From contig WGMZ01000031.1 in assembly GCA_016124735.1 (NCBI GenBank), positions 52,147-116,146 on the forward strand: a stretch of DNA of 64,000 nt, in the 5' to 3' direction. Below are positions 19,532 through 59,653 of this stretch, piece by piece. How positions within the stretch are numbered: position 1 is the first letter of the stretch; every line of letters starts with the position of its first letter. Position numbers and translations under genes: made by a program. The notes beneath the pieces are model-generated. The model searched no databases. It saw only the letters and a program-made list of their open reading frames with translations, and was not told the DNA's origin. Origin of the DNA: Bacteroidota bacterium. GTDB lineage: Bacteria > Bacteroidota > Bacteroidia > UBA8524.

Positions 19532-19552
19532 GTTTTGTAATCCAAATAATTG

Positions 19553-24483: not shown

Positions 24484-24513
24484 TACAAGTTAATTTCCTC
24501 CGAGCTTTAGTGA

Positions 24514-27577: not shown

Positions 27578-27590
27578 TTTTCTTTTTTAA

Positions 27591-31128: not shown

Positions 31129-32944
31129 TTAAAAAGAGTAAACGGTAAATTTTAAATGTATTATTCGCCTTATTAGCAAAGTGATCGTTAATGATGTCCT
31201 GAAGTTTTTCGCGATTCAGTCGCTCAGTTAACCCCTTGTTATAAAAGTATTTCATGATTCGCTCCGGGCCAAGATTACCGATTTTTTTATCCAATGGTGG
31301 ATGAAACCCGGCTTTTCTGCGATCAACTAATTCCTTTGGGATTCTGGAAACAAGTACATCATACAAAGGAATTTTTCTTCTCTTCAGAGTAATGAGTCGG
31401 CTATCCGGTTCTGCCAGGGTATTCTCCAGAAGCTCAGGAGTGGCTAATGGAACCCTCAGTTCAATGCTTGCCTGCATACTGGATTTATCTGCCACCATGA
31501 AATTATGACTTAGAAAGCCCTGAACATCCACAAGCATCGCTTTTTTCACGGAGCTGAAATGCCGGTAAGGAGCATGAATAGCCTTTACATCATTTTGATA
31601 TCTCTTCAAGTCTTCTCCATTTGAAGTCAGGGCTTCAATTTCTGCATTGGAAAATGGAGTCAGCAATGCCTGATACGACTTAGAGAAAGAATTCTCTCTA
31701 AAAAAATTACTAAAACGTTCCAGCTTTTTAGAGAAGAACTTAGATCGTTTCATCAGTGGTTTTGCGAGAGGCCACACAAATCTGCCCAATTTGGTAACGA
31801 GTAAGAGCTGGTAACGCGGATAACCGGCAAAAATTTCATCTGCTCCCATTCCACTCAGCATGACCGTACACCCTCTTTTTCTTGCTTCAATGGAGATATG
31901 CTTCGATACAGAGAAGGTAAAATCTGCAATCGGCTCTTCGACCAAACGGGCCACTTCTTCCACTGAATTTAAAAATGCTTCCGGACTATCTTCTTCTACT
32001 GCCGGAGGTAACTCAATCAGATCGACCTTCAGCTCTTTTGCGATTTTTCTTCCATAATCCAGGTCGCTGGTAAATCCGGATTCCTTCACTTCCTCCTGAT
32101 TTTCGCTCAGTATCATCGTTGTGGTTTCCGTCTCCATGGAGGATAATATCAGGCTCGAGTCCACACCACCGCTGAAAAACAACCCAACAGGCACATCACT
32201 CAGCAAGTGATTTGAAATGCTCTTGTCAAGAACCTCATCCCAGGAAGTTGTTCTTTTCACAGCTTGAGCAGTCCAATATTCGGTAATGGATGGGTTCGAA
32301 ATTTCATTTTTCAAATCAAATCCAATCCAGTTTCCAGGAGCAACTTTATGTGTATGATTAAAACCGGTACGCGGTTCATATAAAAATCCAGCCGACAAGA
32401 AATCTGTCCAGACCTTCGGATCAATTTCCGGTTTCTTGCCCAAAACCTTCCAAATTGCTTTGAGCTCGGAAGCCCAAATCAATTGACCATCCCAGTAATA
32501 ATAATACAGAGGTTTAATTCCTAATTTATCCCGGCATAACCAAAGCTTCTGTTCAACTGTATCGTAAATTACAAAAGCGAACATGCCCTGGAAATCTTTG
32601 AATCCCTCGGTGCCGAATTCAATAAAGTATTTGAGCAGAACTTCTGTATCAGAACTTGTTCTGAAGTTGTGACCCTTTGCGGACAATATTTCCTTCAGCT
32701 GGAGAAAATTGTAAATCTCGCCGTTGAAAGTCAGGATATAGCGTTCATCTTCGGAGAAGAAGGGTTGATTGGATCGGGGATCCAAATCCAAAATGCTCAG
32801 ACGAACATGTCCTAATACAACATGGTGGTCGGCTGCCGTAAGCTCATGGTAATTCTGAAAATCCGGCCCCCGATGAAGGATGCTTTGAATTCCTGCCTCA
32901 ATATTCAGGCTATTATTAGAGATATATCCTACTACTCCGCACAT
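31103..32944 (-). CDS. Asparagine synthetase B-like glutamine amidotransferase (WbpS-like candidate uronate amidotransferase)
   Basis: The N-terminus MCGVVGY carries the Ntn nucleophile Cys2. A PP-loop SGGVDSS is present and the length is 613 aa. Confidence 0.85.
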   Translation of the reverse strand: MCGVVGYISNNSLNIEAGIQSILHRGPDFQNYHELTAADHHVVLGHVRLSILDLDPRSNQPFFSEDERYILTFNGEIYNFLQLKEILSAKGHNFRTSSDTEVLLKYFIEFGTEGFKDFQGMFAFVIYDTVEQKLWLCRDKLGIKPLYYYYWDGQLIWASELKAIWKVLGKKPEIDPKVWTDFLSAGFLYEPRTGFNHTHKVAPGNWIGFDLKNEISNPSITEYWTAQAVKRTTSWDEVLDKSISNHLLSDVPVGLFFSGGVDSSLILSSMETETTTMILSENQEEVKESGFTSDLDYGRKIAKELKVDLIELPPAVEEDSPEAFLNSVEEVARLVEEPIADFTFSVSKHISIEARKRGCTVMLSGMGADEIFAGYPRYQLLLVTKLGRFVWPLAKPLMKRSKFFSKKLERFSNFFRENSFSKSYQALLTPFSNAEIEALTSNGEDLKRYQNDVKAIHAPYRHFSSVKKAMLVDVQGFLSHNFMVADKSSMQASIELRVPLATPELLENTLAEPDSRLITLKRRKIPLYDVLVSRIPKELVDRRKAGFHPPLDKKIGNLGPERIMKYFYNKGLTERLNREKLQDIINDHFANKANNTFKIYRLLFLSAWYAENK

Positions 32945-34035
32945 TAGTTATTGCCTACTATTTCAATAAATTTTCGATTCCAATCGGTCGAATTAAACTC
33001 TTTCGATCTTTCGTATGATTGCTCACCCATTTCTTTCAACATGGCTTGATTGTTCACCAATTTCCGCATTACATCCGCCAGACCCTTATTATTTTCTATA
33101 GGCACCAAAAAGCCATTCCGACCCTCTTCAACCAATTCGTCGAGAAAGCGCCACCTTGTGGTCACAATTGGTAAGCCCGCTTCCATTGCTTCAATCAAAG
33201 CACCCGGATATCCTTCACCTTTCCAAAAAGATGGATACACAAAGGCATCGGCTTGCAGTAATTGTTTTCCAATTTCGGCATGTGGAAGTTCTCCAAGATA
33301 CTGGATGGTTGGTGTCTGCTCCAGCTGCCTGAGAATAGTATCATCGGTGCATTTTCCTATCACCTTTACAATAAAATCCGCCTCTTGCTTCGACAGAATC
33401 ATGCAAGCTTCGACCAAAACCTGTATCCCCTTTTCTTTTTTTACATGACCGACATAGACAAAGGTGGTTTTATCGGATGGCAATTTTTCTTCCTTTCGCA
33501 CTAATTTGTTTGCTGGCCGAGACGTTGGAAACCATTCAATATTCTCAACAGATCCTATGTTCTCTTTCCAAAAAGTGATTAAGCCCTTTGTTTGTAGCAG
33601 AATTCTATCAGAGGACCCTAGCCGTTTATAGTACCACTTATGCAGAGGTTTCGCCTCACAATAAAGGTCCAAGTCGCTGCCAAATAAGCGAATTTGAAAT
33701 TTTCTCTTAAAAATCCGTGCCATTGCAAAAAACACTATTCCCCATGGCCCCACCCTTTGTGGGTTTGCATGGAATGAAATAATCTGATAGAAAGGAATCG
33801 ATAGTAGTATTTGAAAGAAAAGTTTAATCTGCAAAAGCATATTGGCAAATCTGCCCGGCAACACCCTCAAGCTAATCAGACTAAAGTCCAGGTTACTTTT
33901 TTCTATGTCTTTGAGCAGAAGATCAAAAGACACCCGCGTTCCTCCCAGAGGAGGTGGCAATGGACCTATTAAAAGGATACGCTTTTTTAGCTCAGCCATT
34001 TTTCTTTCCAGGTTTGGAAAATATACAAATGCCAA
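32944..34035 (-). CDS. Glycosyltransferase family 4
   Basis: The C-terminal half of the GT-B fold carries FVYPSFWKGEGYPGALIEAMEAGLPIV (EX7E). Confidence 0.75.
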   Translation of the reverse strand: MAFVYFPNLERKMAELKKRILLIGPLPPPLGGTRVSFDLLLKDIEKSNLDFSLISLRVLPGRFANMLLQIKLFFQILLSIPFYQIISFHANPQRVGPWGIVFFAMARIFKRKFQIRLFGSDLDLYCEAKPLHKWYYKRLGSSDRILLQTKGLITFWKENIGSVENIEWFPTSRPANKLVRKEEKLPSDKTTFVYVGHVKKEKGIQVLVEACMILSKQEADFIVKVIGKCTDDTILRQLEQTPTIQYLGELPHAEIGKQLLQADAFVYPSFWKGEGYPGALIEAMEAGLPIVTTRWRFLDELVEEGRNGFLVPIENNKGLADVMRKLVNNQAMLKEMGEQSYERSKEFNSTDWNRKFIEIVGNN

Positions 34036-35888
34036 AGTTTTCGTTCACTGAGATTTTCACCCGCAAGAAAGCGATCACGGTAATGGATAATCTCGGGAAC
34101 ATTAAAATAGGCAGAATCCAATTTCTCCTCATTTATCACATCCATAAGCGTGGCCTTCAATGGCCCTCTCAACCATTCTGCGAGAGGAACAACAAATCCT
34201 TGCTTTGGCTTATCAATCTGTTTCTTATCGATCAAATCCCAGACAATTCTTTTGAGCAGATATTTTCCAGTTTGTTCATTTATCTTGAGATGATTACTTA
34301 GAGCAAAGGATTCCTCAATTATCCGGTAATCGAGTAGCGGCTCCCGTCCTTCGATGGAGAACCACATGGTTGAACGATCTACCTTGGTCATAATTTGATC
34401 CGGCAAATGTGTTCGGACATCCGTGAAGAGCATATCGGCCAGTGGATTTCCTGAACGAAGGACATTTTTAAATCGTCCAGGCTCGTCGCCTTCGATATGC
34501 ACCCATTTATTAATTTCTTCGTCCGAAATATATTTCGAGATTCCCCGCAGAATATCTACAATGTCTTTTTGTTTCAGAAGACTTTTAATTTTCCTGATTC
34601 TACCCAGCGGATTTCGTTTTCCCACCAATTTTTCCGCAACTGAATCAGGCATTAGCAGCGCCACTTCGCAACCCAGGATGTAAATTAAACGAAGCGGGGA
34701 ATTACTCATTTTATGAATCTTGAGCGCCCATTTGTGTTTATCGTACCCACCAAAAATTTCATCACCTCCATCAGCAGAAAGGACTACCTTCACTTTTTCA
34801 CTTGCCAGTTCACTAACCATCATGGTTGGTATTGCACTTGGATCACCAAATGGTTCATCAAACAGAAATGGAATATCCTGCAAGTATCTCAAGGCATCCT
34901 CTATGGCACAAACACGACTTGAATGCGTCGTTCCGAAATGGGCAGCGATTTTTTTTGCATCATCTGACTCATCAATTTTTTTATCCTGAAACCCTATGGT
35001 AAATGTTTTAAGGTCTTCCCTCTTTTCTGAGAGTTTTCCCACCAATAAGGTGCTATCATATCCACCACTTAAAAATACTCCAACAGGCACATCCGCAATC
35101 ATCCTGTAGTTGAATGCTGAATCAAATAATTGATTAAAAGTCTTTACTCCTTTTGATTCATCATGTATCGCATGTTTTTTAAGTTCTGACAGCGCATTTT
35201 CTTTGAAATGCCAGTATTCAGTGTCATTCGTTTCGAAACCGTTTAAGTTCAATTCGAGGTAATGCCCGGGAGAAATTTTATGAATTCCTTTATATATACA
35301 GAGATGTCCCGGAACATACCCGAATTGCATGAAATCTTTAATGGCCCGAGGATTCAATACCGGCTTGAATTCCGGGTGACCAAAAAAAGTTTTTAATTCT
35401 GAGCCAAAATAGAAATTCCCCTCATTCCATCCATAATACAACGGCTTAACCCCCACCCTGTCGCGAACAAAGAACATTTTACCTTTCACCTTATCTAACA
35501 AGGCAAATGCAAACATTCCATTCAGATGATGGACAAAATCAATCCCATAAGATCCATACAAGGCCAACAATACTTCCGTATCAGAATTTGATTGAAACGG
35601 GTATTTCGCTTCTTTCAGGAATTCATCTTTAAGTTCCTGATAATTGTAAATCTCTCCATTGAAAACAATTACCACCGATTTATCGTGGTTATACATAGGT
35701 TGGTTGGCCACTTCAGACAAGTCGATTATCGAAAGGCGTTTATGAACCAATCCTATGTGATGATTTCCGACAGTCTCAATTTGAATCCCCGTGCTATCCG
35801 GACCGCGGTAGTCAATGGCTTTTCCCATCGCTTCCATGGTAGATTCTGTGACAATTGACTTACTAAGTAATCCTGAAAAGCCGCACAT
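33987..35888 (-). CDS. Asparagine synthetase B-like glutamine amidotransferase (second copy)
   Basis: The N-terminus MCGFSGL carries Cys2. A PP-loop SGGYDST is present and the length is 633 aa. The gene overlaps the downstream GT4 by 49 bp. Confidence 0.85.
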   Translation of the reverse strand: MCGFSGLLSKSIVTESTMEAMGKAIDYRGPDSTGIQIETVGNHHIGLVHKRLSIIDLSEVANQPMYNHDKSVVIVFNGEIYNYQELKDEFLKEAKYPFQSNSDTEVLLALYGSYGIDFVHHLNGMFAFALLDKVKGKMFFVRDRVGVKPLYYGWNEGNFYFGSELKTFFGHPEFKPVLNPRAIKDFMQFGYVPGHLCIYKGIHKISPGHYLELNLNGFETNDTEYWHFKENALSELKKHAIHDESKGVKTFNQLFDSAFNYRMIADVPVGVFLSGGYDSTLLVGKLSEKREDLKTFTIGFQDKKIDESDDAKKIAAHFGTTHSSRVCAIEDALRYLQDIPFLFDEPFGDPSAIPTMMVSELASEKVKVVLSADGGDEIFGGYDKHKWALKIHKMSNSPLRLIYILGCEVALLMPDSVAEKLVGKRNPLGRIRKIKSLLKQKDIVDILRGISKYISDEEINKWVHIEGDEPGRFKNVLRSGNPLADMLFTDVRTHLPDQIMTKVDRSTMWFSIEGREPLLDYRIIEESFALSNHLKINEQTGKYLLKRIVWDLIDKKQIDKPKQGFVVPLAEWLRGPLKATLMDVINEEKLDSAYFNVPEIIHYRDRFLAGENLSERKLWHLYIFQTWKEKWLS

Positions 35889-35944
35889 ATAAGTTAATTA
35901 TTGAATTCGGTTTTGTTTGTTATCTTTTGCTTTGATTGAAAAAA

Positions 35945-37081
35945 TTATAACCCTGCCCGTTTAATTACTTCGAATAAATCTTGAGCAGCCAGGGATTCAT
36001 GGTAATAATATCCTCTTTCGATGCGCTCCTTTTCCATTAGCTGCCTGTCCTCCTCAAGAGTTAATTCCATTGCATTTGCAAGGGCATGGAAATCATCCAC
36101 CTGAACGAGTCTTCCATATTTTCCGTTCTCCAGAATTTCTGTTGGCCCGGTTTTGCAAGCAGTGCTCACAACAGGAACTCCTGTTGCCAAAGCTTGAATC
36201 AATACATTTGGAAGTCCCTCATAACGGGATGACAATACAAAAAGGTCTGCCTTGTGCAGATAAGGCAAAGGGTTAGAAACATAGCCCTTGATTGTGACAT
36301 ATTCTTCTAAACGCAATTCGTGGATAATTTTTATTATCTGAAGGTAATAAGCATCCTCCTTATTGTATTCTCCAAGTATGGTGAGGTGAATATTCTTAAA
36401 TTTATTTCTAAGAAGGTCCAGACTTTTAAGCAACATATCGAAGCCCTTTTGAAAATCCATCCGACCAATCGCCACTATATTCTTTTCCGCCTTTGGGAGT
36501 CCTTCCTTTACAGTTTCCTGCATAAGTATTTTGAAATCCTCTCCTATGACAGGATTTCTAACAAGCAGGACTCTATCTTTTTTCAATGAATAGAAAGATG
36601 CTATCTCTTGCACCATTTCTTCGGAAACAGAAATGATTCCCGAATAAAAACGGAATAAAATTCTTGCAGCAAAAATATGCACCCGCACACTGAATCGAGC
36701 GCTTTCCCAAGCTTGTTTGGGCGCAATAGCCTCCCTGAAAAATATCGGAATCGAACTTCCAGAAAAAATTTTCGCCAAAGCAATGACATTTCCTGCATTG
36801 TGGAGCGAGGTAATGACACAATCAAATTTCTTCAATTTTAGAAATTTGAACCAATCCGGAAGGGTTTTAAGAATGTTGCTGCGCTTTAAACGAAGTACCT
36901 CAAACTTATCCGACAGTTCGGTTTTAAGAGCTCCTCCTTCCTGGCCAATAACCAGACTTACCCGGTAATGTTCCGACAGGATATTTGCGTACTTTATCAG
37001 GTTCTTTTCTGCCCCACCTCCCGCCATTCTCGGCAGAAATATGGCGATACGTCCTGTGTTCATTCTATGATTCATTCGCAA
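35945..37081 (-). CDS. Glycosyltransferase family 4
   Basis: The protein has a GT-B fold with C-terminal LSSRYEGLPNVLIQALATGVPVV (EX7E region). The true start may be an internal Met. Confidence 0.75.
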   Translation of the reverse strand: MRMNHRMNTGRIAIFLPRMAGGGAEKNLIKYANILSEHYRVSLVIGQEGGALKTELSDKFEVLRLKRSNILKTLPDWFKFLKLKKFDCVITSLHNAGNVIALAKIFSGSSIPIFFREAIAPKQAWESARFSVRVHIFAARILFRFYSGIISVSEEMVQEIASFYSLKKDRVLLVRNPVIGEDFKILMQETVKEGLPKAEKNIVAIGRMDFQKGFDMLLKSLDLLRNKFKNIHLTILGEYNKEDAYYLQIIKIIHELRLEEYVTIKGYVSNPLPYLHKADLFVLSSRYEGLPNVLIQALATGVPVVSTACKTGPTEILENGKYGRLVQVDDFHALANAMELTLEEDRQLMEKERIERGYYYHESLAAQDLFEVIKRAGL

Positions 37082-37115
37082 GGTCTTCGGTGGAATGGCC
37101 TATAAATAATTCTTT

Positions 37116-38297
37116 TCATTTTGGGTCGATGTCGACACTCTTGTGATTAAGCCTGTAATTTCCGTATAGTAAGATCGGCAACATGATCGTTGTGAAATTA
37201 AAACTCAATCCAGACGCAATAATCAATACCAGACTAAGATTAAAAATACCCGATATATATTTACGAAGCACAAAAATTGAAAGAATCAATCCAATGATTC
37301 CCCCTCTGTACAAAGTATCAACCCAAAAGGTATCTCCCAAAAATATACCGTCAGGTTGTTGAAAACCATATCCAATCCATGGATTCGATTCAATACTGCG
37401 AATCGTTTCGTAATTCAACAAATCATGATTGGAAGCATCATACCTTGAAGAATATCCTTTTGAAATCAAATCAGCAAATCCACTGTACCCCGCATTTTCC
37501 AAAATTGAACTGAAAATTGGACCTATAAAAATAGCTGCAACCAAACCCACCCAAGGTAAAATAAGAAACGCCCGAGTTCCCTTTCCAACCAGTCTGTAAT
37601 AACTGTAAAGGAGCAATAAAATGAGTCCTATATAATACGCTTTGGAAAGTGTAAAAATTCCTAAAACAGCAGCGGCACCAAACCATCGCCATTTCTTCAA
37701 GCTGGCAAAGAAAAATGCCGTATAAAGGGAAAAGGCTGACAAATAAAGTGGAGTAAAGAAAACTCCGGTTTTTCGAGTGATCGTGCCATACCAATCCAGA
37801 GAATCTGATAAGTTAACACTCCTCGCATCTGAGAAATAATATTCTTTCAATAGCTCCACCGATTCCTTTGGATAGAATTCCTGATACAATACGGCCAAGC
37901 AATTCAGTACTACCATTATCTTAGAAAATCTTTCAAGGACAGGTAAGATAATATCTGATTGGTTTTCGTAGTAAAATAAAAAAACAAGAAAGGCTACATG
38001 TCCCAGTATTGGGATGTATGGAATTTTAGCAAAACCCGTTAAAGAGGAAAACAGGTACAATACAAACAAGCATATATATAGAAATTGTCCGGTTTGAAGC
38101 CGTTTTCGTTCTAAGATTTGCCATAATAAAATGAAAGGGAAAATGACATAGTAATTTGAAATAGCCAGATCTGATATCTTATACGGAGGTGCACCCAGAA
38201 TAATGCAAAGAATTAATGCAAGGCTAGAAATCCGATTAAAACGATAAAGGATTATACTGTAAATGGAGAGAACAAAAACAAAAATGTTAACCAGCAC
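37116..38297 (-). CDS. O-antigen polymerase/ligase-like polytopic membrane protein (Wzy-type candidate)
   Basis: The 393-aa protein has about 10 TM helices and a larger periplasmic loop near the C-terminal third. It sits in a Wzx/Wzy-dependent locus context. Confidence 0.55.
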   Translation of the reverse strand: MLVNIFVFVLSIYSIILYRFNRISSLALILCIILGAPPYKISDLAISNYYVIFPFILLWQILERKRLQTGQFLYICLFVLYLFSSLTGFAKIPYIPILGHVAFLVFLFYYENQSDIILPVLERFSKIMVVLNCLAVLYQEFYPKESVELLKEYYFSDARSVNLSDSLDWYGTITRKTGVFFTPLYLSAFSLYTAFFFASLKKWRWFGAAAVLGIFTLSKAYYIGLILLLLYSYYRLVGKGTRAFLILPWVGLVAAIFIGPIFSSILENAGYSGFADLISKGYSSRYDASNHDLLNYETIRSIESNPWIGYGFQQPDGIFLGDTFWVDTLYRGGIIGLILSIFVLRKYISGIFNLSLVLIIASGLSFNFTTIMLPILLYGNYRLNHKSVDIDPK

Positions 38298-38385
38298 GCG
38301 CTATATTAAATTTATTCAGAAATAAATAAGGACGTACCATTAGAGGCCCCGCCTTGTTTCAGGAATTTGGGTAGTAGTGCTTCTG

Positions 38386-39429
38386 CTATCCGGAAAAATC
38401 ACCAAAGTAAAATTCCGCGATTTTGGGATATAATCGAAATGTTTGAAGAATGTATTGATAGTCGTATGAGTTTTTATTCAACTCCAATGACTTTTTGTAC
38501 TCACCATAGTGAGTCAGGTATTTATCCTTACTGACAACCGGGTTTAATTGGTAGTTAGGACTCACTTCCAGTATGAGTGGTTTGGTCGATAAATCATCGT
38601 TTTGCCAGGCAATATCGAAAGCGCCAGTAACCATTTTCAATTTTCTAAACTCCTGAAGGATAAATGCTCGCCAGTTTTCAGGGAAAGAAACAAAATCAAC
38701 CTTGGACCCATGACCAGTTGAGGTCGGCTTCCATTCATCTGCCAGGTTAATACGCCAATAATGATGTACAATTTCGTTCCCAGTTAGAATAACTCGTAAG
38801 TCTCTTCGCATATTCAGTAATTCCTGAATTAGAATCGCATCATTCCTTTTCAGGTAATCATCATTTAATAAGGATAGAAGCTCCTCCTTGTTGTTGACTT
38901 TATGGACTCCTTTGGCACTGGCAGAATGCACTTCTTTTAATAGGCATGGATATTCAAGAGCTTCCAGATCAATCTCCTCAATGGTATGGAAGCTTTGTGT
39001 TTGAGGCGTGCTGATATTCAAGCGGCGGAATTCATTGGACATATGCGTCTTATTCTCCCAAAACAATGCTTCGTTTAATTCAGGGATTACTTTATTTCCC
39101 TGCTCTTTAAGCTGCTCGATGATAAAGCAAAGATTTTTCGAATAGTTGGCAAACTTCTGTCTATTCAAATAGCCGCGATCATAACTCATTATAATCGTAC
39201 AATTCTTCAGGCGCCCAATATCTTCTCCTTTAAAAACCGTATATGGAATGTCCATTTCAACCAAGGCTTTCTCCCAAGCAAAATCATTCACCGCCGTATC
39301 AGAAAACCAATACCTCCATCCCCGATTCGGCTTCCAGATAACAACATCCGCATTCGCAAACCTCTTCCGGGAAGAGAGGGTCAATAAAGCCCACAAGCGA
39401 AATAATTTTTTAATTAATTTCTTCATCAC
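38386..39429 (-). CDS. ATP-grasp-fold ligase (candidate amide-bond-forming enzyme)
   Basis: The central region YPCLLKEVHSASAKGVHKV ... ILIQELL ... DLRVILTGNEIVHHYW follows the ATP-grasp pattern (Lys, acidic and Arg residues). No signal peptide is present. Confidence 0.55.
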   Translation of the reverse strand: MMKKLIKKLFRLWALLTLSSRKRFANADVVIWKPNRGWRYWFSDTAVNDFAWEKALVEMDIPYTVFKGEDIGRLKNCTIIMSYDRGYLNRQKFANYSKNLCFIIEQLKEQGNKVIPELNEALFWENKTHMSNEFRRLNISTPQTQSFHTIEEIDLEALEYPCLLKEVHSASAKGVHKVNNKEELLSLLNDDYLKRNDAILIQELLNMRRDLRVILTGNEIVHHYWRINLADEWKPTSTGHGSKVDFVSFPENWRAFILQEFRKLKMVTGAFDIAWQNDDLSTKPLILEVSPNYQLNPVVSKDKYLTHYGEYKKSLELNKNSYDYQYILQTFRLYPKIAEFYFGDFSG

Positions 39430-39943
39430 GCAGCTTTTTAATTTCTGACAGGCCGTGGTATTGAAGATTCAACTCTTGAACGGCTCTGATAATATCTGAG
39501 TACAATTTTTCCTGTCCTCGCTCCTGGTTATAAGACAAATCATCATAATAAATGACCGAAGCATATTTACTTACAAGCAGCCTCAGGTACTTTAATTTAT
39601 GTCTTGCAGAAGGCACAATTATGCATTCCGAAGAAATATTATTTTCTTTTAACCAATCTCGAGTTACCCTAAAAAGCTCCATCTTTCGTGCTGTAAGGAT
39701 GAGAATCTTATAGCCTTTACTTTCGTACTCTTTTAATTTATTTATTACTCCGCGAATGGGCTTTGCCGATGCATACGCCTTTCTGGAATATCCACCCTTT
39801 ACCAAACATGGCCAGGTATCTGCCAGTGTATTATCCAAATCAAACACGACCAAATTCGCAGCATTTATAGTAAGTCTGAGCTTTTTCTTGTTGTAGTTGA
39901 GCCAATCCAGGAGTATAAATAATACTTCTCTTATTCTTGTCAT
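39410..39943 (-). CDS. HAD-superfamily phosphatase
   Basis: Motif I VVFDLDNTLAD (DxDxT) is present. The length is 177 aa and the gene overlaps the ATP-grasp gene start. Confidence 0.65.
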   Translation of the reverse strand: MTRIREVLFILLDWLNYNKKKLRLTINAANLVVFDLDNTLADTWPCLVKGGYSRKAYASAKPIRGVINKLKEYESKGYKILILTARKMELFRVTRDWLKENNISSECIIVPSARHKLKYLRLLVSKYASVIYYDDLSYNQERGQEKLYSDIIRAVQELNLQYHGLSEIKKLRDEEIN

Positions 39944-39944
39944 C

Positions 39945-41108
39945 TTACAGACCCAGTTCCACTGGGAGTTTCATCAGGGATTTAATTGCATTCACAATGA
40001 CTTCATTCTCATCTTTCGAACGCGCTGCAACTCTTATGAATTGACCATTCAAACCAATTTTATCCGAACAATTTCTGACATAGACGCCATGGTCTGACAA
40101 AAGTCTTGCCTGCGCATGTCCAGAATTCAGTCCATTCATGAGCTCAATTAATACGAAATTGGCTTTCGAAGGGTACACTTTTATTCCTTCAATTGCCTGT
40201 AGTTCAGCAATGAAAAACAAAGACTCCGTGATGTATTTCTTTCGTACAATTTCGTAGGCATCATTAAAGTCCTTCCTCACATAGAGTCGAAAAAAGTATT
40301 CTGAAAGACCGTTTAAGTTCCACAAGTAACCATTCGAAAATAATTCCTTCACCCATTCACTCTTCATGACCGCATATCCGCAACGCAAACCAGCAACACC
40401 AAAATCTTTCGACATACTTTTAACTAAAATCACATTGTCATTTTCCAGAACAATAGGCAATACCGATTTAAGCTCCATATCGCTACTCTCATATGCAAAA
40501 TGAATAAAACTCTCATCGACAATAATGTTATCCAGATAGCTTAACTCCGCTATAATTCTAGATATATCTTCGAATTTTAAATAGCCACCATCCGGATTAT
40601 TCGGATTGATTAATACAATAGAACTTGCTCCGCTATTTTTGACAAAATCGATATATTCATCTACATCCAATTTAAAATTCTTTTCCTTCTTTAATTCATA
40701 AAAAACAACCTCAATATTGGGTGTGATGTATTCATAATAGGAGGAAAAAGTTGGTATATTAACAATTAGTTTGCCCTTAACGTAACGATGCAAAACTGCT
40801 TGAATTGCCTCTATCGCACCGTTCCCAACAAAAATACGCGCTGGATCTATTTTCAAATTTTTACCTAATAACTCGGCAATTTCAGAACTTTGTGAGGGAT
40901 AAAATTCTAATACACGGTTGATTTTTCCTGTGTCAATTAGTTCTCGCTTAAAGTATTCGAGAAATAGTTCCGTTGCGTAAGGATTGCTTAAGAAGCAGGC
41001 ATCTACCTTAATTTTTAACTCAGGTATCTCCTCCAACATTGTAAATATGCTTGGAGAGTGTGTTCCAGAACGACTTTTTAGTTCTAATATTTTATCAAAC
41101 ATTTCCAT
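39945..41108 (-). CDS. Class I/II PLP-dependent aminotransferase (HisC/CobD-like)
   Basis: NPNNPDG and the PLP-Lys motif SMSKDFGVAGLRCGY are present. The length is 387 aa. Confidence 0.8.
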   Translation of the reverse strand: MEMFDKILELKSRSGTHSPSIFTMLEEIPELKIKVDACFLSNPYATELFLEYFKRELIDTGKINRVLEFYPSQSSEIAELLGKNLKIDPARIFVGNGAIEAIQAVLHRYVKGKLIVNIPTFSSYYEYITPNIEVVFYELKKEKNFKLDVDEYIDFVKNSGASSIVLINPNNPDGGYLKFEDISRIIAELSYLDNIIVDESFIHFAYESSDMELKSVLPIVLENDNVILVKSMSKDFGVAGLRCGYAVMKSEWVKELFSNGYLWNLNGLSEYFFRLYVRKDFNDAYEIVRKKYITESLFFIAELQAIEGIKVYPSKANFVLIELMNGLNSGHAQARLLSDHGVYVRNCSDKIGLNGQFIRVAARSKDENEVIVNAIKSLMKLPVELGL

Positions 41109-42345
41109 AATTACGGAGACTATTGGTATTTAAAAACAAATTCAATCCTTTCATCAGGGAGACAAATGCATAAACTATAATTAGGGTATAAAGCACGCCA
41201 ATTTCAGCATAGGCTTTCACCAAAGGGATTATGACTATAAAATTTAAGATCGCCGAATAGAGTAATATTCTGCTCATTTTTCTTTCCTTGTGCTCAATGA
41301 CAAAAAAATTCGAAAAAATGGGCCCAAATGGCAGCAACAAGATGACAAATGAAGTGACGTGCAGGAGGTTCACAATATTCTCATCCTTGTTTCCCTGCAA
41401 TAAAATAGCAATGGGTCCAGCCAAATAATAAATCACGAAAGCTCCTACGACAAATACCACGGAAAGACCCAAAGTAAATTGCCTTCTCATTTTGATATAT
41501 TTATCACGCTGGCTGATAAACCATTGCGCCATATTGGGAAATGTGGCTTGTACAAGTGGTTGAGCCAGCGAAGAACCAGCTTTGATCATCTTATCGGCAA
41601 CACCAAAAATACCTACTGCTCCGTCTCCCGCATAATACCCCAGAATCAGAACATTTGTTGACCCATAAGTGCTTACAAGAACCCTGGAAATAAATACATG
41701 CCATCCTAACTTCAATTCTTTCATAATGGCCCGGTAAGGTGGTATCTGAATACGAAAATTCTCCAGTTTAAGTGCTATTCCGAATCCAATTAGCCCGGAT
41801 ATTAACCAACCACTTGACAGTAAAAGAATGGTAGCCCCTATTTGTGTCGATTCGCGAATAAATAGAAAAATTAGACCTATAGAAATGAATTTGGAAATAA
41901 CATTGATAATGGTCAGAATTCGCATTTTTTTTATTCCCTGAAAATACCAAACAGGAAAGAAAGCGTTGCCAACAACCATAAGGAATCCATAAAAATAATT
42001 CAATCTATCCTGAGGAGTATCCAACCATAGTATTATGCCTATAAATGGAATAACTGTGGCAAATAATAAAACTATCTTAGATATCTGTATGCGAATAAAT
42101 GCGGTATTCCTCTCCTCCGAACTCGTGCATTGCCCTATTGTGCGTGTACCGGTCAGGTTAAAACCATAATCAACAATGATGTTAAAATAGGACATGATGG
42201 CCTGGATGAAAATGACCTGACCATATCCCTCCTTCCCAATTACCCGAAACAGAAAAGGGATTACAAGAAGCGGTGTAAGGTAATTCGCTGCTTGCATAAA
42301 ACCCAGTGCTACCGTATTTCCGATAATTTGTTTCCGCTCGGTCAA
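41095..42345 (-). CDS. wzx: Oligosaccharide-unit flippase Wzx (MOP superfamily)
   Basis: The protein is 416 aa with 12 TM helices and follows the polysaccharide-biosynthesis-protein pattern. Confidence 0.7.
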   Translation of the reverse strand: MTERKQIIGNTVALGFMQAANYLTPLLVIPFLFRVIGKEGYGQVIFIQAIMSYFNIIVDYGFNLTGTRTIGQCTSSEERNTAFIRIQISKIVLLFATVIPFIGIILWLDTPQDRLNYFYGFLMVVGNAFFPVWYFQGIKKMRILTIINVISKFISIGLIFLFIRESTQIGATILLLSSGWLISGLIGFGIALKLENFRIQIPPYRAIMKELKLGWHVFISRVLVSTYGSTNVLILGYYAGDGAVGIFGVADKMIKAGSSLAQPLVQATFPNMAQWFISQRDKYIKMRRQFTLGLSVVFVVGAFVIYYLAGPIAILLQGNKDENIVNLLHVTSFVILLLPFGPIFSNFFVIEHKERKMSRILLYSAILNFIVIIPLVKAYAEIGVLYTLIIVYAFVSLMKGLNLFLNTNSLRNYGNV

Positions 42346-43367
42346 GAGTTGATTTTATAAAATTTATTATACCAATCGATAAATGAAGCAATTCCTTCCT
42401 GCACAGAAGTGTTCGGTTCATAATTTGTAATCTTTTTGAGCTTGCCCACATCCGCCCAGGTTTGGTGTACATCACCTGGTTGCATTTCTCTGAAAATAAG
42501 TTGTGCCTTTTTCCCGATTGTTTCTTCCATCACACGGATAAATTGCATTAAATCTACAGGGGCTCCTCTGCCAATATTCAAAATACTATATGGTTCAGTA
42601 TAACCTTCTGCTAAAACCAATAAACGAATTCCGTTCACAATATCTTCTACAAATGTAAAATCACGTGCCATGTCTCCATTATTAAAAACCTGGATAGGCT
42701 TGTCTTCCGTAATAGCTTTCGCAAACAACATGGGAGCCATGTCGGGTCGGCCCCACGGTCCGTAAACGGTAAAAAAACGCAGTCCGATAGTCTGAATTCC
42801 ATACAGATGACTATACGTGTGGGCCATCAACTCATTTGCTTTCTTTGTGGCGGCATAAAGACTCACGGGATTAGATACTTCCTGTGATTCCGTGAAAGGG
42901 ACGGTACTAGAATCTCCATAAACACTTGAACTGGAGGCATAAATTAAGGTCGGTACTTTTCGATGACGACATCCTTCTAAAATATTCATGAATGCATCGA
43001 TATTCGCAGAAATGTACGCATGCGGGTTCTCCAACGAATATCTCACGCCCGGTTGAGCAGCCAAATGAACAACATGAGTGAATGTAAACTGACCAAACAA
43101 ATTCTCTACCGATTTGCGATCGGAAAGATCCATACGAATGAAAGTATAGAATTGATTTATTTTTGATTTGACTGGTTCATTCCACTTTAAATTTTCGGTT
43201 TCTATACCCGAATCTTCCAATCTGGCTAACTTCAGTTTGATGTCATAATAATTATTGATGGAGTCCACTCCAACAATGTGATATCCATCTTTCCACAGTG
43301 CCTTTACCAGCTGGTGTCCTATAAATCCAGCAGTTCCAGTTACAAGAATGGTTTTATTTCTATCCAA
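42342..43367 (-). CDS. UDP-GlcNAcA/UDP-GlcA 4-epimerase (TviC/WbpP/CapI-like SDR)
   Basis: The N-terminus is TILVTGTAGFIGHQL followed by DSINNYYDIKLKLARL, which is characteristic of the CapI/TviC subfamily. It overlaps the dehydrogenase partner downstream. Confidence 0.8.
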   Translation of the reverse strand: MDRNKTILVTGTAGFIGHQLVKALWKDGYHIVGVDSINNYYDIKLKLARLEDSGIETENLKWNEPVKSKINQFYTFIRMDLSDRKSVENLFGQFTFTHVVHLAAQPGVRYSLENPHAYISANIDAFMNILEGCRHRKVPTLIYASSSSVYGDSSTVPFTESQEVSNPVSLYAATKKANELMAHTYSHLYGIQTIGLRFFTVYGPWGRPDMAPMLFAKAITEDKPIQVFNNGDMARDFTFVEDIVNGIRLLVLAEGYTEPYSILNIGRGAPVDLMQFIRVMEETIGKKAQLIFREMQPGDVHQTWADVGKLKKITNYEPNTSVQEGIASFIDWYNKFYKINS

Positions 43368-43410
43368 AATATACTCTTTGCTGCTAATAAATAAATGAGT
43401 ATTTCACACC

Positions 43411-44703
43411 TTAAAGTCTCGAATCTACAAGAGATTTGTCTAACACGCCTTTGATATCAAAGACAACAGAATTAGTAGTGGTAAGCACTGAAAAATCTAA
43501 TTTCAAGAATTCATCGTGTGCAACGGCCAGAACCACGGCTTCATAACTCATTCCAGGGCTCTCTTTGGTAATTTCCAAACCGTACTCATGTTTGACTTCC
43601 TCCTCGTTTGCCCAGGGATCATAAATATCTACCATGCACCCGAAGCCCTTTAATTCGGAAACGATATCGACTACACGGGTATTTCGAATATCCGGACAAT
43701 TTTCCTTAAAGGTGAAGCCCATGACCAGCACATTGCTGCCCTTTATGGTATGACCTTTTTGAATCATCAATTTGACGACTTTGTTTGCCACGAACATGCC
43801 CATATTGTCATTCACTCTTCTTCCGGAAAGAATTACCTGGGGATGATATCCCAAGGTTTCTGCTTTGTGCGCCAGATAATAGGGATCCACGCCAATACAA
43901 TGTCCACCAACCAATCCTGGCTTGTATTTTAAAAAGTTCCATTTTGTGCCGGCGGCGGCCAAAACATCGTTGGTATCAATACCAATTCGATCGAAAATCA
44001 AAGCCAGTTCATTTACAAAGGAAATGTTGACGTCTCGTTGTGCATTTTCAATTGCCTTTGAAGCTTCAGCTACTTTAATGTTCGGTGCTTTATGTGTTCC
44101 TGCTGCAATAATTGATGCATACAATGCATCGACAAAATCTGCAACATCCGGTGTGGACCCAGAAGTTACCTTCATGATTTTAGTCAAAGTATTCACTTTA
44201 TCCCCCGGATTGATACGCTCAGGAGAATATCCGCAATAAAAGTCTTGATTAAAGACTAATCCTGAATTCGATTCCAGCACAGGAACGCAATCTTCTTCCG
44301 TGCAGCCAGGATAGGTTGTTGACTCATAAATAACGATATCGCCTTTTTTAAGAATTTGTCCAATACTGGCACTGGCAGAAATAAGTGGTCTGAGATCCGG
44401 AGATTTGCTGGAATCAACCGGAGTAGGTACGGTGACAATGTAAACATTGCATACTTCTATTTCATTCCGGTCAGATGTAATTTTTAATCCTGCATGAGGA
44501 TCACCATTTCCTAAAGCAATTTTTAGTTCGCTTTCATCCGCTTCCAGAGTTGAATCTTTGCCCGATGCCAATTCGCGGACTCTATGGCTGTTTATGTCAT
44601 ATCCAACTGTTTTAAATTTTTTGGAAAATTCAAGGGCTAATGGAAGGCCGACATAGCCTAATCCAATTACAGCGATTTTAGCTGATTTCAATTCTTGCAC
44701 CAT
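43411..44703 (-). CDS. UDP-N-acetyl-D-glucosamine (or mannosamine) 6-dehydrogenase (TviB/WbpA/WecC-like)
   Basis: The N-terminus is [18 protein letters not shown]. The catalytic Cys region [11 protein letters not shown] is present and the 430-aa length is typical of the TviB/WbpA class. Confidence 0.85.
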
Positions 44704-45221
44704 AACATTAAATTCGATTCTCTTAAAACGGTGTTTTTTTCTGCCTCAAATTCTTCTCGATTGAACAGAACATACCTTATTTTTCTTTTTATTTGAACTT
44801 CTACTTTTTCCAGCAACCTCATCAGATAGGCTTTATCGATATCTCCTACAAAGATTAAATCAATAATAGGACTATCCAGCCCCTTTCCTAATTCTCCAAC
44901 AAGATATACTTCTTCAAGCTGTCCTAATCGACTAACTACCCGATCTACAATTTGATCCAGGCCTGTATATTTGAGCAGGATATTATGAATGTCTGCAAAA
45001 AGCGGATGCTGCCTATTGGCTCCAAACAATTTGCGGTTTCCCTGATGAACGGACATCAAAAGTCCGGCTTTCTCAAATCTGTTTAGTTCAAGTCTTATTG
45101 CATTTGTGCTTTCACCAAATTCAGATTCAAGGCTCCTCAAATAGGCAGAGGTATCTGCATTAAGAAAAAATTTCAGCAATAGTTTCACCCTGGTTTTGGA
45201 TGAAATTAAAATATCAATCAC
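44688..45221 (-). CDS. Putative winged-helix transcriptional regulator
   Basis: The N-terminal wHTH-like segment is [11 protein letters not shown] ... [18 protein letters not shown]. The length is 177 aa. It lies between wzc and the sugar-biosynthesis genes. Confidence 0.4.
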
Positions 45222-45447: not shown

Positions 45448-47847
45448 CTAGTTTTTCCTGAGACGCAGTTTGGATTTTTTCTTCTGATGGTCCTCTTCAT
45501 AATAGCCATATCCATAACCGTAGCCATAACCGTAGCCATAGCCGTATCCGTAGCCATAGCCGTAACCATATGTTGAACTTACTCCTACATCATTCATGAT
45601 GACGGAAATCGACTTGTTACTGTGATTTTCCTCCAAATAATTTAATGAAGTCAACATTGGCTTTCTTGTGTATGATTGCCGAATTACATAAATAACAATA
45701 TCCGCAAACTTCATCAAATCATTCGCATCTGCCACCAATCCCATCGGAGGCGTATCCATTACAATATAGTCGAATCTTTCTTTTAGCTCAATGAGCATTT
45801 CTGCGAACTTCTCGCTCATCAATAATTCAGCAGGATTGGGTGGTGTCGGACCAGATGGGATTACGAATAAATTCGGGTTCATGGTCGGATGGATTACATC
45901 TTTCAGTTTCTCCGCACCAATAAGGTAATTCACTACACCCTTTTCGTTGGTAAGGTTGAAGTCATCAAAAATTGTGGGGTTCCGTAAGTCCAAACCAAGG
46001 ATGACTGTTTTCTTTTCCCCCAACGCAAGAATGGAAGCTAAGTTCATAGAACAATATGTTTTTCCTTCACCAGAAATGCTGGAGGTCACCAAAATAACTT
46101 TCTTCTCCTTACTGATAGATAAATACTGAAGATTTGTTCTTATCGCCCGGAAAGATTCGGATATACTCGTCTTAGGGTGTTCAAGTACAATTAAGTTCGT
46201 GCTCTTTTCACTGTGACCAACCAATCCCAATATATTTGCCTTGGAAATGCTTTGAACTTCTGCCAATTCATGTACTCTGTTGTCGAAATAACTGAATATC
46301 GAAATGCCACCTATCGGAATTAAAATACCAAGTAAAAATCCGATTGCATAATTCAGTGACTTTTTTGGAGAAATTACACCCAAAGCTACCGCTTCATCAA
46401 TAATCTTATTAGGTGAAACAATCGATGCCTTATTAATTTCACTTTCAGCCTTTTTCTCAAGAAGTAAAGTAAATAATGCGTCGTTCAGTAAATATTTTCT
46501 CTCAATAGTTAAATAGGTTCTTTCAACCTGAGGTAGTTTCGCAATTTCTTCATCGTATGAATTAATCTGGCGATCTAATTCCTGAATTCTGATGGATGAC
46601 CCTTGTTTTTGAGAATTCAGATTCTCCACCAATGTTTTTTTAAGCAATACTATCTGAGCATCAATACCATTCAGCAAGGTTCCTTCCTTCACAATCCCTG
46701 ATAACATATCCTGCCTCTGCGAATTCAAATGAATTAATTCATTTACCAAACCAATTAACACCGGATCTTGAACGCCCATCGAAGAAGGGGCCACAATATC
46801 GTCTATGGATCTACGGCCATGTACATAGTCTTCTAAAAAGTTCAGGTATTGGATTTGCAGGTCCTCTGATGACTTTTTGGCAATCAATACATCCAGTTTC
46901 TCAAAAATTCTTCCTCCTTCTTCCCCGATAGTTGTCAATCGGTGTGAAGAGTGAAAATCTTCTCTCAGATTTTCAACCTGATCCAGACTGTCCGACACTA
47001 TCGCCAATTGGGAATTTATAAAGTCAATGGTCTTTTCGGACTTTTCCTTGGCTTCCTTCAAACCAAATTGAATATAGGTTCGTGCAAGAGTATTTAAATA
47101 ATCTTTGATTTTTAACTCATTTCTACCTTTCAACTCCATTCTTATAGCCGACGATCCTTCCGCCTCTGGGTCAATCACCAGGTCTTTGTTGTATTTTTCG
47201 ATGAGAGATTCCTCGGTGTTAAACTTGATAGACATTCGTTCATTTCCCTTCACTGGCCCCTTCCTTATTAACCTGAAGTAAAACCCGTTCCAGCCAATAT
47301 TTTTATCAAATTCATATTCGTCCCGAAGTGTGGTATCCCACAAATCTTCAATCTCGTCCCTGTTTAATAGCTTCCAATTTCCTTCATTATCAAACTCTAT
47401 TTCGAGATTGACTTTTTCCATATACTCCGGAATACTGTCATATATCAATTTAATAGGCACATCCGGACCGTAGGTTTCATTGCTAAGCAGGCGACCAACA
47501 ATAAAATAGCTAATCCCAAAATCCAATTGATCAAGCGTGAGCCTGGTCATCTTGCGAGATTTAATTTTTACTACCTCATTCTCAAAAGTCAAGCGTGGGT
47601 TATAATAGCCCAAGGCGGACATCAATTGTTCAGGACCAAAAGATTCCTTTTCACTGCCATCGTCAATTAATAGTTTTAACTCTGTCTTATAGGTTGGTAA
47701 GGTATATCTGTTAACGAGATACGCAACAGACAAACCCAACAAAATACCGAATACGATTATTGGCCAAAAAGATAAAATTCTAAAAAGTAATGCCTTTAAA
47801 TCAATCGATTCACTTGCATTAGATGATTGGCGTTCCGAAGAAGTCAT
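45448..47847 (-). CDS. wzc: Polysaccharide co-polymerase / tyrosine autokinase (Wzc, BY-kinase) with a C-terminal (YG)11 tyrosine tail
   Basis: An N-terminal Wzz-like domain has two TM segments and long coiled coils. The C-terminal kinase has Walker A VTSSISGEGKTY and Walker B-like VIMDTPP. The tail is STYGYGYGYGYGYGYGYGYGYGYYEE. Confidence 0.85.
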   Translation of the reverse strand: MTSSERQSSNASESIDLKALLFRILSFWPIIVFGILLGLSVAYLVNRYTLPTYKTELKLLIDDGSEKESFGPEQLMSALGYYNPRLTFENEVVKIKSRKMTRLTLDQLDFGISYFIVGRLLSNETYGPDVPIKLIYDSIPEYMEKVNLEIEFDNEGNWKLLNRDEIEDLWDTTLRDEYEFDKNIGWNGFYFRLIRKGPVKGNERMSIKFNTEESLIEKYNKDLVIDPEAEGSSAIRMELKGRNELKIKDYLNTLARTYIQFGLKEAKEKSEKTIDFINSQLAIVSDSLDQVENLREDFHSSHRLTTIGEEGGRIFEKLDVLIAKKSSEDLQIQYLNFLEDYVHGRRSIDDIVAPSSMGVQDPVLIGLVNELIHLNSQRQDMLSGIVKEGTLLNGIDAQIVLLKKTLVENLNSQKQGSSIRIQELDRQINSYDEEIAKLPQVERTYLTIERKYLLNDALFTLLLEKKAESEINKASIVSPNKIIDEAVALGVISPKKSLNYAIGFLLGILIPIGGISIFSYFDNRVHELAEVQSISKANILGLVGHSEKSTNLIVLEHPKTSISESFRAIRTNLQYLSISKEKKVILVTSSISGEGKTYCSMNLASILALGEKKTVILGLDLRNPTIFDDFNLTNEKGVVNYLIGAEKLKDVIHPTMNPNLFVIPSGPTPPNPAELLMSEKFAEMLIELKERFDYIVMDTPPMGLVADANDLMKFADIVIYVIRQSYTRKPMLTSLNYLEENHSNKSISVIMNDVGVSSTYGYGYGYGYGYGYGYGYGYGYGYYEEDHQKKKSKLRLRKN
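45501..45570. repeat. Near-perfect tandem DNA repeat (period about 6 to 12 bp) encoding the (Tyr-Gly)n tail of Wzc
   Basis: The plus-strand sequence ATAGCCATATCCATAACCGTAGCCATAACCGTAGCCATAGCCGTATCCGTAGCCATAGCCGTAACCATA is the reverse complement of TAY/GGN codon pairs. Confidence 0.8.
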
Positions 47848-47856: not shown

Positions 47857-48732
47857 TTAGGTCTTACTGATATAGTATACAATGATAATCGTCGATGAAA
47901 GTACCGATAAAACAGATACCAATGATTGAAAACCGGTAGTCCCTGTGCCAAGTGCTCTGATTGCTAATGGTTGCACATATATTATATCATTCGGTTGTAT
48001 GTAATAATAAGGGGATGATATTATAGATTCATCCAGTAAATTGACCTTGTGAATTCGAGTCCCATCAGGATACTGCCTCATAATTGTTACCTCGCTTCTT
48101 TTCGCCAATTCTGTTAAATCTCCTGCATTTGCAATCGCTTCAAACAAAGTCATTCGATTCTGTAATACCATGAACTTACCGGGTCGCTTTACTTCACCGA
48201 GAACTGAATATCTCAATCCTCCCAGTCGCACCGTTGTGTACACATTACTCAGGTATTGATTAAACGTGGATTGAACAATTGAATTTGCTTCAAATACATT
48301 TAACCCTTCCAATTTCATTTTTCCAATAATCGGTAAATAAACAAAGCCTGAATCATCTATAGTAAAACCCGTCAAGTAGAAATAGTCCCCACCCTGTTGC
48401 AAAGCACTAGACATATTCATATTCATTCGCTGTTCAAAGATGTTTTGCAAAATCGGATTATCAGAAGCCAGCTTGACATCTATGCCCACAATATCACCCT
48501 TTTGAAGTCGATAATTATTGCGTTGCACATCATACAAGGTATCAGCCTGCTGATTTATATCTTGAAGATAGATGATTTTCTTATTCGGCACACAGCCAAT
48601 TATTCCCAACATCAGGAACAATGGAAGGAAAAAGTTTGTAGCTCTTTGACTCAAAATCGAAACAATTTTGGGCGAAGATAGGACTAAGAGTTCGGTTTTC
48701 AGAATTCCAAATTCAGTTTTGTATGCATACAA
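47857..48732 (-). CDS. wza: Polysaccharide export outer-membrane protein Wza (Poly_export plus SLBB domains). The true start is likely the internal Met giving the lipoprotein signal LMLGIIGC.
   Basis: A lipobox-like LGIIGC is present. The Poly_export-like segment is YRLQKGDIVGIDV and the SLBB-like segment is YSVLGEVKRPGKF. The C-terminus is hydrophobic. Confidence 0.75.
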   Translation of the reverse strand: MYAYKTEFGILKTELLVLSSPKIVSILSQRATNFFLPLFLMLGIIGCVPNKKIIYLQDINQQADTLYDVQRNNYRLQKGDIVGIDVKLASDNPILQNIFEQRMNMNMSSALQQGGDYFYLTGFTIDDSGFVYLPIIGKMKLEGLNVFEANSIVQSTFNQYLSNVYTTVRLGGLRYSVLGEVKRPGKFMVLQNRMTLFEAIANAGDLTELAKRSEVTIMRQYPDGTRIHKVNLLDESIISSPYYYIQPNDIIYVQPLAIRALGTGTTGFQSLVSVLSVLSSTIIIVYYISKT

Positions 48733-59301: not shown

Positions 59302-59304
59302 TAA

Positions 59305-59647: not shown

Positions 59648-59653
59648 AACTTC

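Follow-up and report, generated by a model that had tools for sequence, protein, structure and literature searches.

The tyrosine-rich tails of BY-kinases are a regulatory element of Wzx/Wzy capsule and exopolysaccharide (EPS) export, and the manner in which such a tail works has been described for Escherichia coli Wzc, where it is inserted in the neighbouring subunit's active site (PMC8285477). In the K30 protein, the C-terminal YY is phosphorylated first and the reaction moves on towards the N-terminus, with tyrosine i placed in the active site and tyrosine i-2 in a tyrosine pocket, and this pocket, which orders the tail and rejects phosphotyrosine, makes of the YxY spacing a one-way ratchet (PMC11986026); the Wzc octamer disassembles after about four phosphotyrosines (pTyr), and a phosphatase resets it (PMC8285477; PMC9800525). 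For the BY-kinases in general, it is the overall level of phosphorylation that matters and not specific sites, and the tyrosines differ in number and position across the family (PMC9800525). The present analysis concerns a tail of this kind that consists of a perfect (Tyr-Gly)11 array closed by Tyr-Tyr, encoded at the 3′ end of a wzc-like gene (45448..47847, minus strand) in a stretch of 64,000 nucleotides from contig WGMZ01000031.1 of a Bacteroidota bacterium, the whole of which is called the window in what follows.

Within the same phylum the characterised BY-kinase is Ptk1 of Porphyromonas gingivalis, with which the comparison is one by description: in the available portion of the source it appears as a single-chain BY-kinase with an ExxRxxR motif, Walker motifs and a C-terminal Y cluster, needed for exopolysaccharide production, with the phosphatases Ltp1 and Php1 named as separate partners, and the description given there is one without a perfect (YG)n array (PMC8787120). 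The Wzc of Acinetobacter baumannii and A. lwoffii has five or six tyrosines, spaced strictly at period 2 (Y712, 714, 716, 718, 720, 722), and Y-to-F mutants shift the product to higher-molecular-weight capsule (PMC9800525). Likened to the window protein by its tyrosine spacing alone, this proteobacterial tail would be a shorter natural YxYxY track, with half the units. The C-terminal cluster of Streptococcus pneumoniae CpsD is reportedly, on the word of Morona et al., a YGX repeat. The likeness of CpsD to the window protein lies in a short Tyr-Gly-containing repeat that serves as the autophosphorylated tail of a BY-kinase, and the differences lie in its period of 3, its 3–4 tyrosines, the division of the system into kinase and modulator (CpsC/CpsD) and the Gram-positive host; phospho-ablative and phospho-mimetic mutants of this tail change the capsule (PMC9800525 and, in the part of the article available, PMC4574921).

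No description of (YG)n arrays in BY-kinases, or of their length polymorphism, turned up in the literature searched. Classical simple-sequence contingency loci are long runs of identical units, which usually act as an on/off switch of expression by frameshift; the window tract is like them in being a tandem repeat within a gene, with a unit number that differs between lineages, and unlike them in that its units are synonymous variants, that the change is in frame and that the variation found here is between lineages only. On balance it is probable that the tract is the autophosphorylated Y-cluster of a Wzc, forming an uninterrupted YxY ratchet track which evolves in frame, and that it is not a contingency locus; it is an extreme member of a known feature, not a new system.

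The kinase and its tyrosine-glycine tract

The tract occupies 45499..45570 on the minus strand (72 bp, residues 760–783 of a 799-aa product, as delimited by translation, codon listing and Tandem Repeats Finder), and its translation, YGYGYGYGYGYGYGYGYGYGYGYY, comprises eleven YG units and a final YY, with 13 tyrosines in all, which bears out the perfect (Tyr-Gly)11 tail reported by an earlier note made from the letters of the window. It contains eleven YxY steps in succession (Y760 to Y782) and then Y783, with glycine at every x, and the chance expectation of such a YG run, given the composition of the remaining protein (Y 3.7%, G 5.5%), is about 2e-27. The protein does not end in the tract, as that note had it, since 16 further residues (EEDHQKKKSKLRLRKN; residues 784–799, 45451..45498, minus strand), an acidic patch and then a basic segment, stand before the TAG stop codon (45448–45450, minus strand).

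The DNA beneath this peptide had been called a near-perfect repeat of 6 and 12 bp, and this description has to be given up. The codons of the tract are TAT GGT TAC GGC TAT GGC TAC GGA TAC GGC TAT GGC TAC GGT TAT GGC TAC GGT TAT GGA TAT GGC TAT TAT, where the eleven units are spelled by six different hexamers, no two identical hexamers are neighbours (the longest run of identical hexamers being one), and the matches given by Tandem Repeats Finder are 75% at period 6 (71–75% identity), 84–86% at period 12 and 82% at period 18. The longest perfect tandems measure 29 bp (a 12-mer in 2.4 copies) and 35 bp (an 18-mer in 1.9 copies); there are two pairs of 17-nt direct-repeat arms, at offsets 12 and 18, and k-mers of 19 nt or more occur only once within 45470–45600, every 31-mer of the tract being unique in the window. 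When the synonymous codons were shuffled among the tract positions, direct-repeat arms at least as long arose in 43% of the trials, so that the regularity of the DNA is no more than the peptide forces upon it. With an interrupted repeat whose 17-nt arms stand at offsets 12 and 18, the window allele would be at most modestly unstable, and the length variants to be predicted from its sequence are those of plus or minus two or three YG units, which, the repeat period being a multiple of 3 as the note had said, would keep the reading frame.

An observation of another order is that neighbouring units of the tract share a codon in 4 cases, against 8.0 expected in the shuffles (P=0.03). The reading of this alternation as selection against slippage was set aside, because among 26 tracts there is only a weak trend (Stouffer z=-2.0, the tracts being non-independent); it is weakened further in that L029, L054 and L017, three of the related contigs treated below, show the opposite, and in that assembly with k=31 would favour interrupted repeats anyway.

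The protein that carries the tract is, on its sequence and its predicted fold, a Wzc-type BY-kinase of the PCP-2a class, that is a polysaccharide co-polymerase with a cytoplasmic tyrosine autokinase, and the features of sequence and fold expected of the family were all found apart from a clade-typical variant of Walker A′, which is weighed further on. Its Pfam domains are GNVR and AAA_31; the NCBIfam model TIGR01007 (polysaccharide biosynthesis tyrosine autokinase) scores 155 bits, with a cut-off of 108; and its best sequence matches in the PDB are CapAB, Etk, VpsO, BceF and full-length E. coli Wzc (1e-35 to 3e-39). The AlphaFold2 monomer model (mean predicted local distance difference test, pLDDT, of 78.9) shows, besides a P-loop domain, two transmembrane (TM) helices and a periplasmic domain of helices and beta structure; its top match in Foldseek is full-length Wzc (E=4e-39), and the kinase domain matches CapAB with a template-modelling score of 0.91–0.93 and a root-mean-square deviation of 1.8 Å. 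Family models, PDB matches and fold therefore agree with the earlier assignment as a Wzc-type BY-kinase whose C-terminal tyrosine cluster is the tract, and by analogy with its relatives the protein would have tyrosine autophosphorylation activity.

All the parts of the protein are encoded on the minus strand. The cytoplasmic P-loop kinase domain (45583..46230, residues about 540–755), delimited by motif search and by alignments to CapB and Wzc, includes the ExxRxxR oligomerisation motif (46138–46158, E564-S-F-R567-A-I-R570), whose E564 does not vary in alignment A1 and whose R567 is kept in at least 90% of the sequences there; Walker A (GxxxxGK[ST]; 46057–46080, SISGEGKT, residues 590–597), which falls on the Walker A motifs of CapB and Wzc in the alignments; and Walker B (hhhhDxxP; 45745–45768, YIVMDTPP, residues 694–701). 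The periplasmic domain is flanked by TM1 (47713..47769, residues 27–45 by hydropathy, helix 28–48 in the AlphaFold2 model) and TM2 (46285–46350, residues 500–521 by hydropathy, helix 496–521 in the model).

This is the order of E. coli K30 and K-12 Wzc (PDB 7NHR, 9EXO, 9R62, 3LA6), which likewise have TM1, periplasmic domain, TM2, P-loop kinase and Tyr-rich tail, and which share with the window protein Walker A, Walker B, ExxRxxR, an adjoining wza and the YxY spacing behind the published ratchet (PMC11986026), at a sequence match of E=3e-39 and an identity of just 18–20%. In alignment the tract falls on the Y-clusters of E. coli Wzc and CapB; it follows the last beta-strand of the kinase domain immediately, its start corresponding to E. 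coli Y705, and lies in a region (residues 757–799, pLDDT 24–43) that is predicted to be disordered. The K30 tail, like that of the window, ends in ...YGY(S/G)YY followed by acidic and basic residues; the E. coli tails, in contrast, have 6–7 irregularly spaced tyrosines (K30: YYRYGHNHYGYSYYDKK) and 3 residues after the last of them, where the window protein has 13 tyrosines in a perfect period-2 array and then a basic extension of 16 aa.

Relatives of the tail and changes of its length

The wider family was surveyed with a query from which the tail had been removed, so that retrieval is not biased by it, against 1.84 billion representative proteins, and the C-termini of the 148 full-length best hits, 30–37% identical, were compared. 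At least (YG)2 occurs in 111 of the 148 (75%) and at least (YG)3 in 68 (46%), the longest perfect YG run among them being 5; the tyrosines in the last 90 residues range from 5 to 19, with a median of about 11. Judged from these C-termini, YG-rich tails with about 9–15 tyrosines, followed by an acidic and basic extension, are the norm of the family, and the window tail has the standard architecture, its perfect run of 11 standing at the extreme of the distribution. The statement that BY-kinases normally carry four to seven irregularly spaced tyrosines is right for Proteobacteria and Firmicutes, as in E. coli and the Gram-positive models, and wrong for this clade, with its median of about 11 among the 148.

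As for what follows the tyrosines, the cluster ends in YY in 96 of 145 relatives whose C-termini were compared, and their post-cluster extension has a median of 19 aa and an acidic start in 60%; among those extensions of at least 10 aa, 82% have a net charge of at least +3. Two close orthologues continue as YYEEDHEKRRK... (L001) and YYEEDFEKKKRR... (L002). An acidic-then-basic extension, often amphipathic in its basic part, is kept in the clade and is absent from E. coli Wzc, and it could bind the membrane or contact the phosphorylated tail.

The comparison of orthologous 3′ ends that the earlier note called for gives, as that note would predict, different numbers of YG units: 11 in the window, 12 in L001, about 10 in L002 and 8–13 in a sister clade. 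The genome scan yielded three orthologues at 64–70% identity (L001, L002, L005). L001, in the same synteny and with 67% amino acid identity to the window protein, has (YG)12YY; L005 stops before the tail; and in more distant orthologues there are 5–8 YG units. L002, a contig of a UBA metagenome-assembled genome with NN joints at 7376–7377 and 8342–8343, reads as written (YG)5-X-(YG)9YY, which is 14 units across an NN joint, and contains three perfect copies of a 24-bp block, or two if the joint duplicates one (shuffle P=0.001). The count of 14 was discounted, since the NN joints of this contig duplicate their flanks and inflate repeat counts. The other NN joint in the same gene does so (RKYLLNEGLYT-X-Q-RKYLLNEG), and at the joint in the tract the 24 bp to the left match the 24 bp to the right, which makes about 10 the probable true number.

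The sister clade comes from a metagenome scan, in 16 contigs (L015–L026, L029, L051, L054, L055) that are 42–49% identical to the query and were probably retrieved via the Walker B pattern FDYIVMDT. Their tails have the form MYGKG(YG)nYYAEDK..., with n of 8, 9, 10, 11, 12 or 13. Seven of the genes are complete, with 82–93% identity in protein and 73–89% in DNA, and in their alignment of 811 columns there are 9 gap columns, 8 of them inside the YG tract. The third-position identity in the nine closest non-identical pairs is 0.56 in the tract versus 0.86 in the 360 nt upstream, the tract value being near the 0.44 found between distant pairs. By this measure the DNA of the tract turns over much faster than the neighbouring synonymous sites. 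L024 differs from L026 by one extra copy of an 18-bp block, TATGGTTATGGGTACGGA, with identical sequence downstream; in L017 the unit TATGGG is repeated unchanged, ten copies in succession; and L015 and L016, which come from two samples and are the only pair with identical flanks, are identical in the tract too. These alignments show the tract to be a hot spot at which, on an evolutionary time scale, the length changes in frame, all the length differences being between sequences that are 2–27% divergent in nucleotides and not between near-identical strains.

It was also observed that sister-clade pairs 94–98% identical over the 360 nt upstream have unrelated codon patterns in the tract and different C-terminal extensions (L018 vs L051). 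The sequence downstream also switches at the tract in several close pairs (L018/L051, L023/L026), which points, as far as the comparison of sequences goes, to breakpoints of recombination at the tract or close to it, where the conserved export genes give way to the variable part of the locus.

None of this lineage-level variation bears on fast or reversible switching. A sequence from the same species was sought, and the exact protein was found on one Logan contig only (SRR10063242); the search for closer relatives gave at best 64–70% identity in the genome scan and at most 49% in the metagenome scan; searches of a word index with the protein, both complete and without its tail, brought up no relatives above 36% identity; and an exact-sequence cluster look-up found 0 of 7 proteins.

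The proposed ratchet track and its rivals

If the E. coli model is carried over to the window protein, the flexible C-terminal tail would be phosphorylated by the neighbouring kinase domain in a ring-shaped oligomer, and the strict Y-x-Y spacing would make of it an uninterrupted version of the K30 YxY ratchet, in which the glycine at each x would keep the tail flexible and all registers equivalent. A longer tail would then provide more steps, or more redundancy, before the build-up of charge and the shortening of the tether open the ring, which a phosphatase would afterwards reset. Long perfect YG arrays arise repeatedly in this family, and their unit number shifts in frame through the gain or loss of blocks of several units. 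The phosphorylation of the tract, the ratchet itself and a possible influence of the unit count on the length of the polymer would in this way follow from homology with E. coli Wzc and the other models.

Several findings weigh against the reading of the tract as a ratchet track that evolves by slippage of this kind: (i) most of the positions that make up the tyrosine pocket in E. coli are occupied by other residues (A534-S-P536 vs S590-I-S592; E675 vs P730), only P645 (P645-L647 vs P701-M-G703) and S679 (vs S734) being matched, in a phmmer alignment to 7NHR at about 20% identity with a gap nearby; (ii) in the Walker A′ motif (VILGLDLR, residues 615–622, within 45982–46005, minus strand), the second Asp and the Arg of the canonical hhhhDxDxR are kept and the first Asp is replaced by Gly (GLDLR), a second point, beside the pocket residues, in which the window protein differs from E. 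coli Wzc; (iii) no wzb adjoins wzc, again in contrast with E. coli, and no protein tyrosine phosphatase of low molecular weight (LMW-PTP) and no PHP phosphatase was found among the subset of 36 window open reading frames (ORFs) scanned with Pfam, although one may lie elsewhere in the genome; (iv) a ring that opened at about four pTyr, as the E. coli ring does, may leave the larger part of the 13 tyrosines functionally redundant; (v) and finally, recombination, and not only slippage, contributes to the tract differences in the sister clade. With regard to Walker A′, GxDxR in place of DxDxR is also what the large majority of the 148 nearest relatives carry, being thus typical of the clade.

The redundancy just mentioned leads to another explanation, according to which a minimum number of YxY steps is what matters, further YG units are silent, and the count merely wanders by way of a labile repeat. 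Such neutral drift is possible, if somewhat doubtful: about four phosphorylations open the E. coli ring with no specific tyrosine being needed (PMC9800525; PMC8285477), 5 to 13 units occur in otherwise similar proteins, and no other feature was seen to covary with n; yet the peptide stays perfectly YG despite scrambled synonymous sites, which argues for purifying selection on every unit, and the range within a clade is narrow (10–12 in the clade of the window, 8–13 in the sister clade). The proposal of the earlier note sees in the tract a contingency locus, where frequent slipped-strand mispairing within a population would tune Wzc phosphorylation, and with it polymer length, in a heritable and reversible manner. 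The period that is a multiple of 3, a YG number that differs among related lineages in a tract that is the indel hot spot of its gene, the homogeneous arrays of some relatives, which indicate recent slippage (the TATGGG x10 of L017), and the 17-nt arms of the window allele at offsets 12 and 18 would all suit it. Even so, we regard it as improbable for this allele, in which six hexamers make up the 11 units, none identical to its neighbour, in which the longest perfect tandem reaches 2.4 copies, and whose DNA is no more regular than the peptide imposes; being interrupted, it is without the stretch of identical units by which a hypermutable contingency locus is defined. Furthermore, the length differences are found only between sequences 2–27% divergent, the identical pair L015/L016 has an identical tract, and the literature search gave no link of Y-cluster length to slippage, the top-ranked articles on wzc and slipped-strand mispairing dealing with frameshifts in homopolymers of other genes and not with the Y-cluster. 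Fast, reversible switching in the window allele is accordingly unsupported.

Two further explanations carry still less weight. The tail is predicted to be disordered, is composed purely of Tyr and Gly and has a conserved basic extension behind it, as would befit an aromatic-glycine low-complexity domain whose multivalent tyrosine contacts cluster the export machines until tyrosine phosphorylation dissolves the clusters; but it sits exactly at the Y-cluster position of the solved BY-kinases, which already explains it; such a domain is very improbable. That the length or regularity of the tract was made by short-read, de Bruijn assembly of a repeat might be suspected from the origin of the window as a Logan metagenome contig from one sample only, and from L002, with an NN joint inside the tract and another that duplicates its flanks. 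This was rejected as the least probable of all, because the tract contains no repeated k-mer of 19 nt or more and its 31-mers are unique, which leaves the assembly path unambiguous; the frame and the conserved YYEED...basic extension moreover continue correctly past the tract, and L001, an orthologue assembled independently, is built in the same way with 12 units. The autophosphorylated Y-cluster that forms an uninterrupted ratchet track and evolves in frame is thus the reading retained here.

The surrounding locus and the meaning of the tract

The wzc-like gene lies 9 bp downstream of a wza-like gene for outer-membrane polysaccharide export (47857..48732, minus strand; Pfam Poly_export and SLBB), and the gene order guaB-wza-wzc-176 aa ORF-ugd is common to the window and L001. 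The ORF directly downstream of wzc, a conserved one of 177 aa in the window (44688–45221, minus strand) that is syntenic in L001 (8763–9293), is matched by neither Pfam nor NCBIfam, and it shares 16 bp with the start of the UDP-glucose dehydrogenase gene. Beyond wzc there extends, according to Pfam scans, a co-oriented polysaccharide biosynthesis locus (18266..45221, minus strand), with UDP-Glc dehydrogenase, epimerases, a Wzx flippase, glycosyltransferases of family GT4 and two AsnB-like amidotransferases. The same strand encodes a sulfotransferase (30190–31128), a heparinase II/III-like protein (27591–29138) and a module for the supply of 3′-phosphoadenosine-5′-phosphosulfate (PAPS), consisting of a cysQ-like phosphatase (22800–23600), a transporter of the CitMHS/Na-sulfate-symporter type (21050–22813), an adenosine-5′-phosphosulfate (APS) kinase (cysC, 20451–21053), cysD (19553–20458) and cysN (18266–19531). 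Since these genes together suggest a sulfated product, wzc probably heads a Wzx/Wzy-type locus of about 30 kb for a sulfated (exo)polysaccharide.

There were no Rfam matches across the whole window, and a scan for sigma-70 promoters and terminators around the gene, with models that do not include Bacteroidota promoters, gave nothing informative. Two other repeats were observed in the window. One is a composite intergenic repeat (58809–59657), without an Rfam match, with four copies of a 118-nt unit at 69–100% identity, each of which holds a 26-nt inverted repeat (AGTCAGTTCGAGCTTGTCGAGAACTG / 18 nt / CACTTCTCGACAAGCTCGAAGTGACT), and with nine copies of the 17-mer CAAGCTCGAAGTGACTT (eight perfect and one at 94%), partly arranged as 19-bp tandem runs. 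The other is a degenerate tandem repeat of about 150 bp (48998–49153; periods 7, 14 and 35), GC-rich in a window of 41% GC and pyrimidine-rich on the minus strand (CTCCCTGCCCCTTGCTCC...), which is found some 270 bp upstream of where wza starts, in the interval from a gene of the 23S-rRNA-IVP family to the wza-wzc operon; an ORF of 94 aa over it (48923–49207) is probably spurious.

The ratchet reading of the tract admits an extension, in which (YG)n would be an evolvable "fuse": the unit number would set the number of ratchet steps, the lifetime of the ring and the length of the polymer, and the gain or loss of blocks, by slippage or unequal exchange, would retune the capsule or EPS in a graded and heritable way, in lineages and possibly in subpopulations. 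This we consider unlikely on what is at hand, although, if it were true, the Bacteroidota with 5–13 units would be a natural allelic series in which to test the ratchet model. The YxY ratchet model of 2025 rests on a single E. coli protein with an imperfect track, and the perfect tracks of Bacteroidota, with 5–13 YxY steps that differ between close lineages, offer such a series for relating step number to ring lifetime and polymer size. Together with the YG-rich tails that are the rule among their relatives, they correct a view of the "normal" Y-cluster that has been centred on Proteobacteria.

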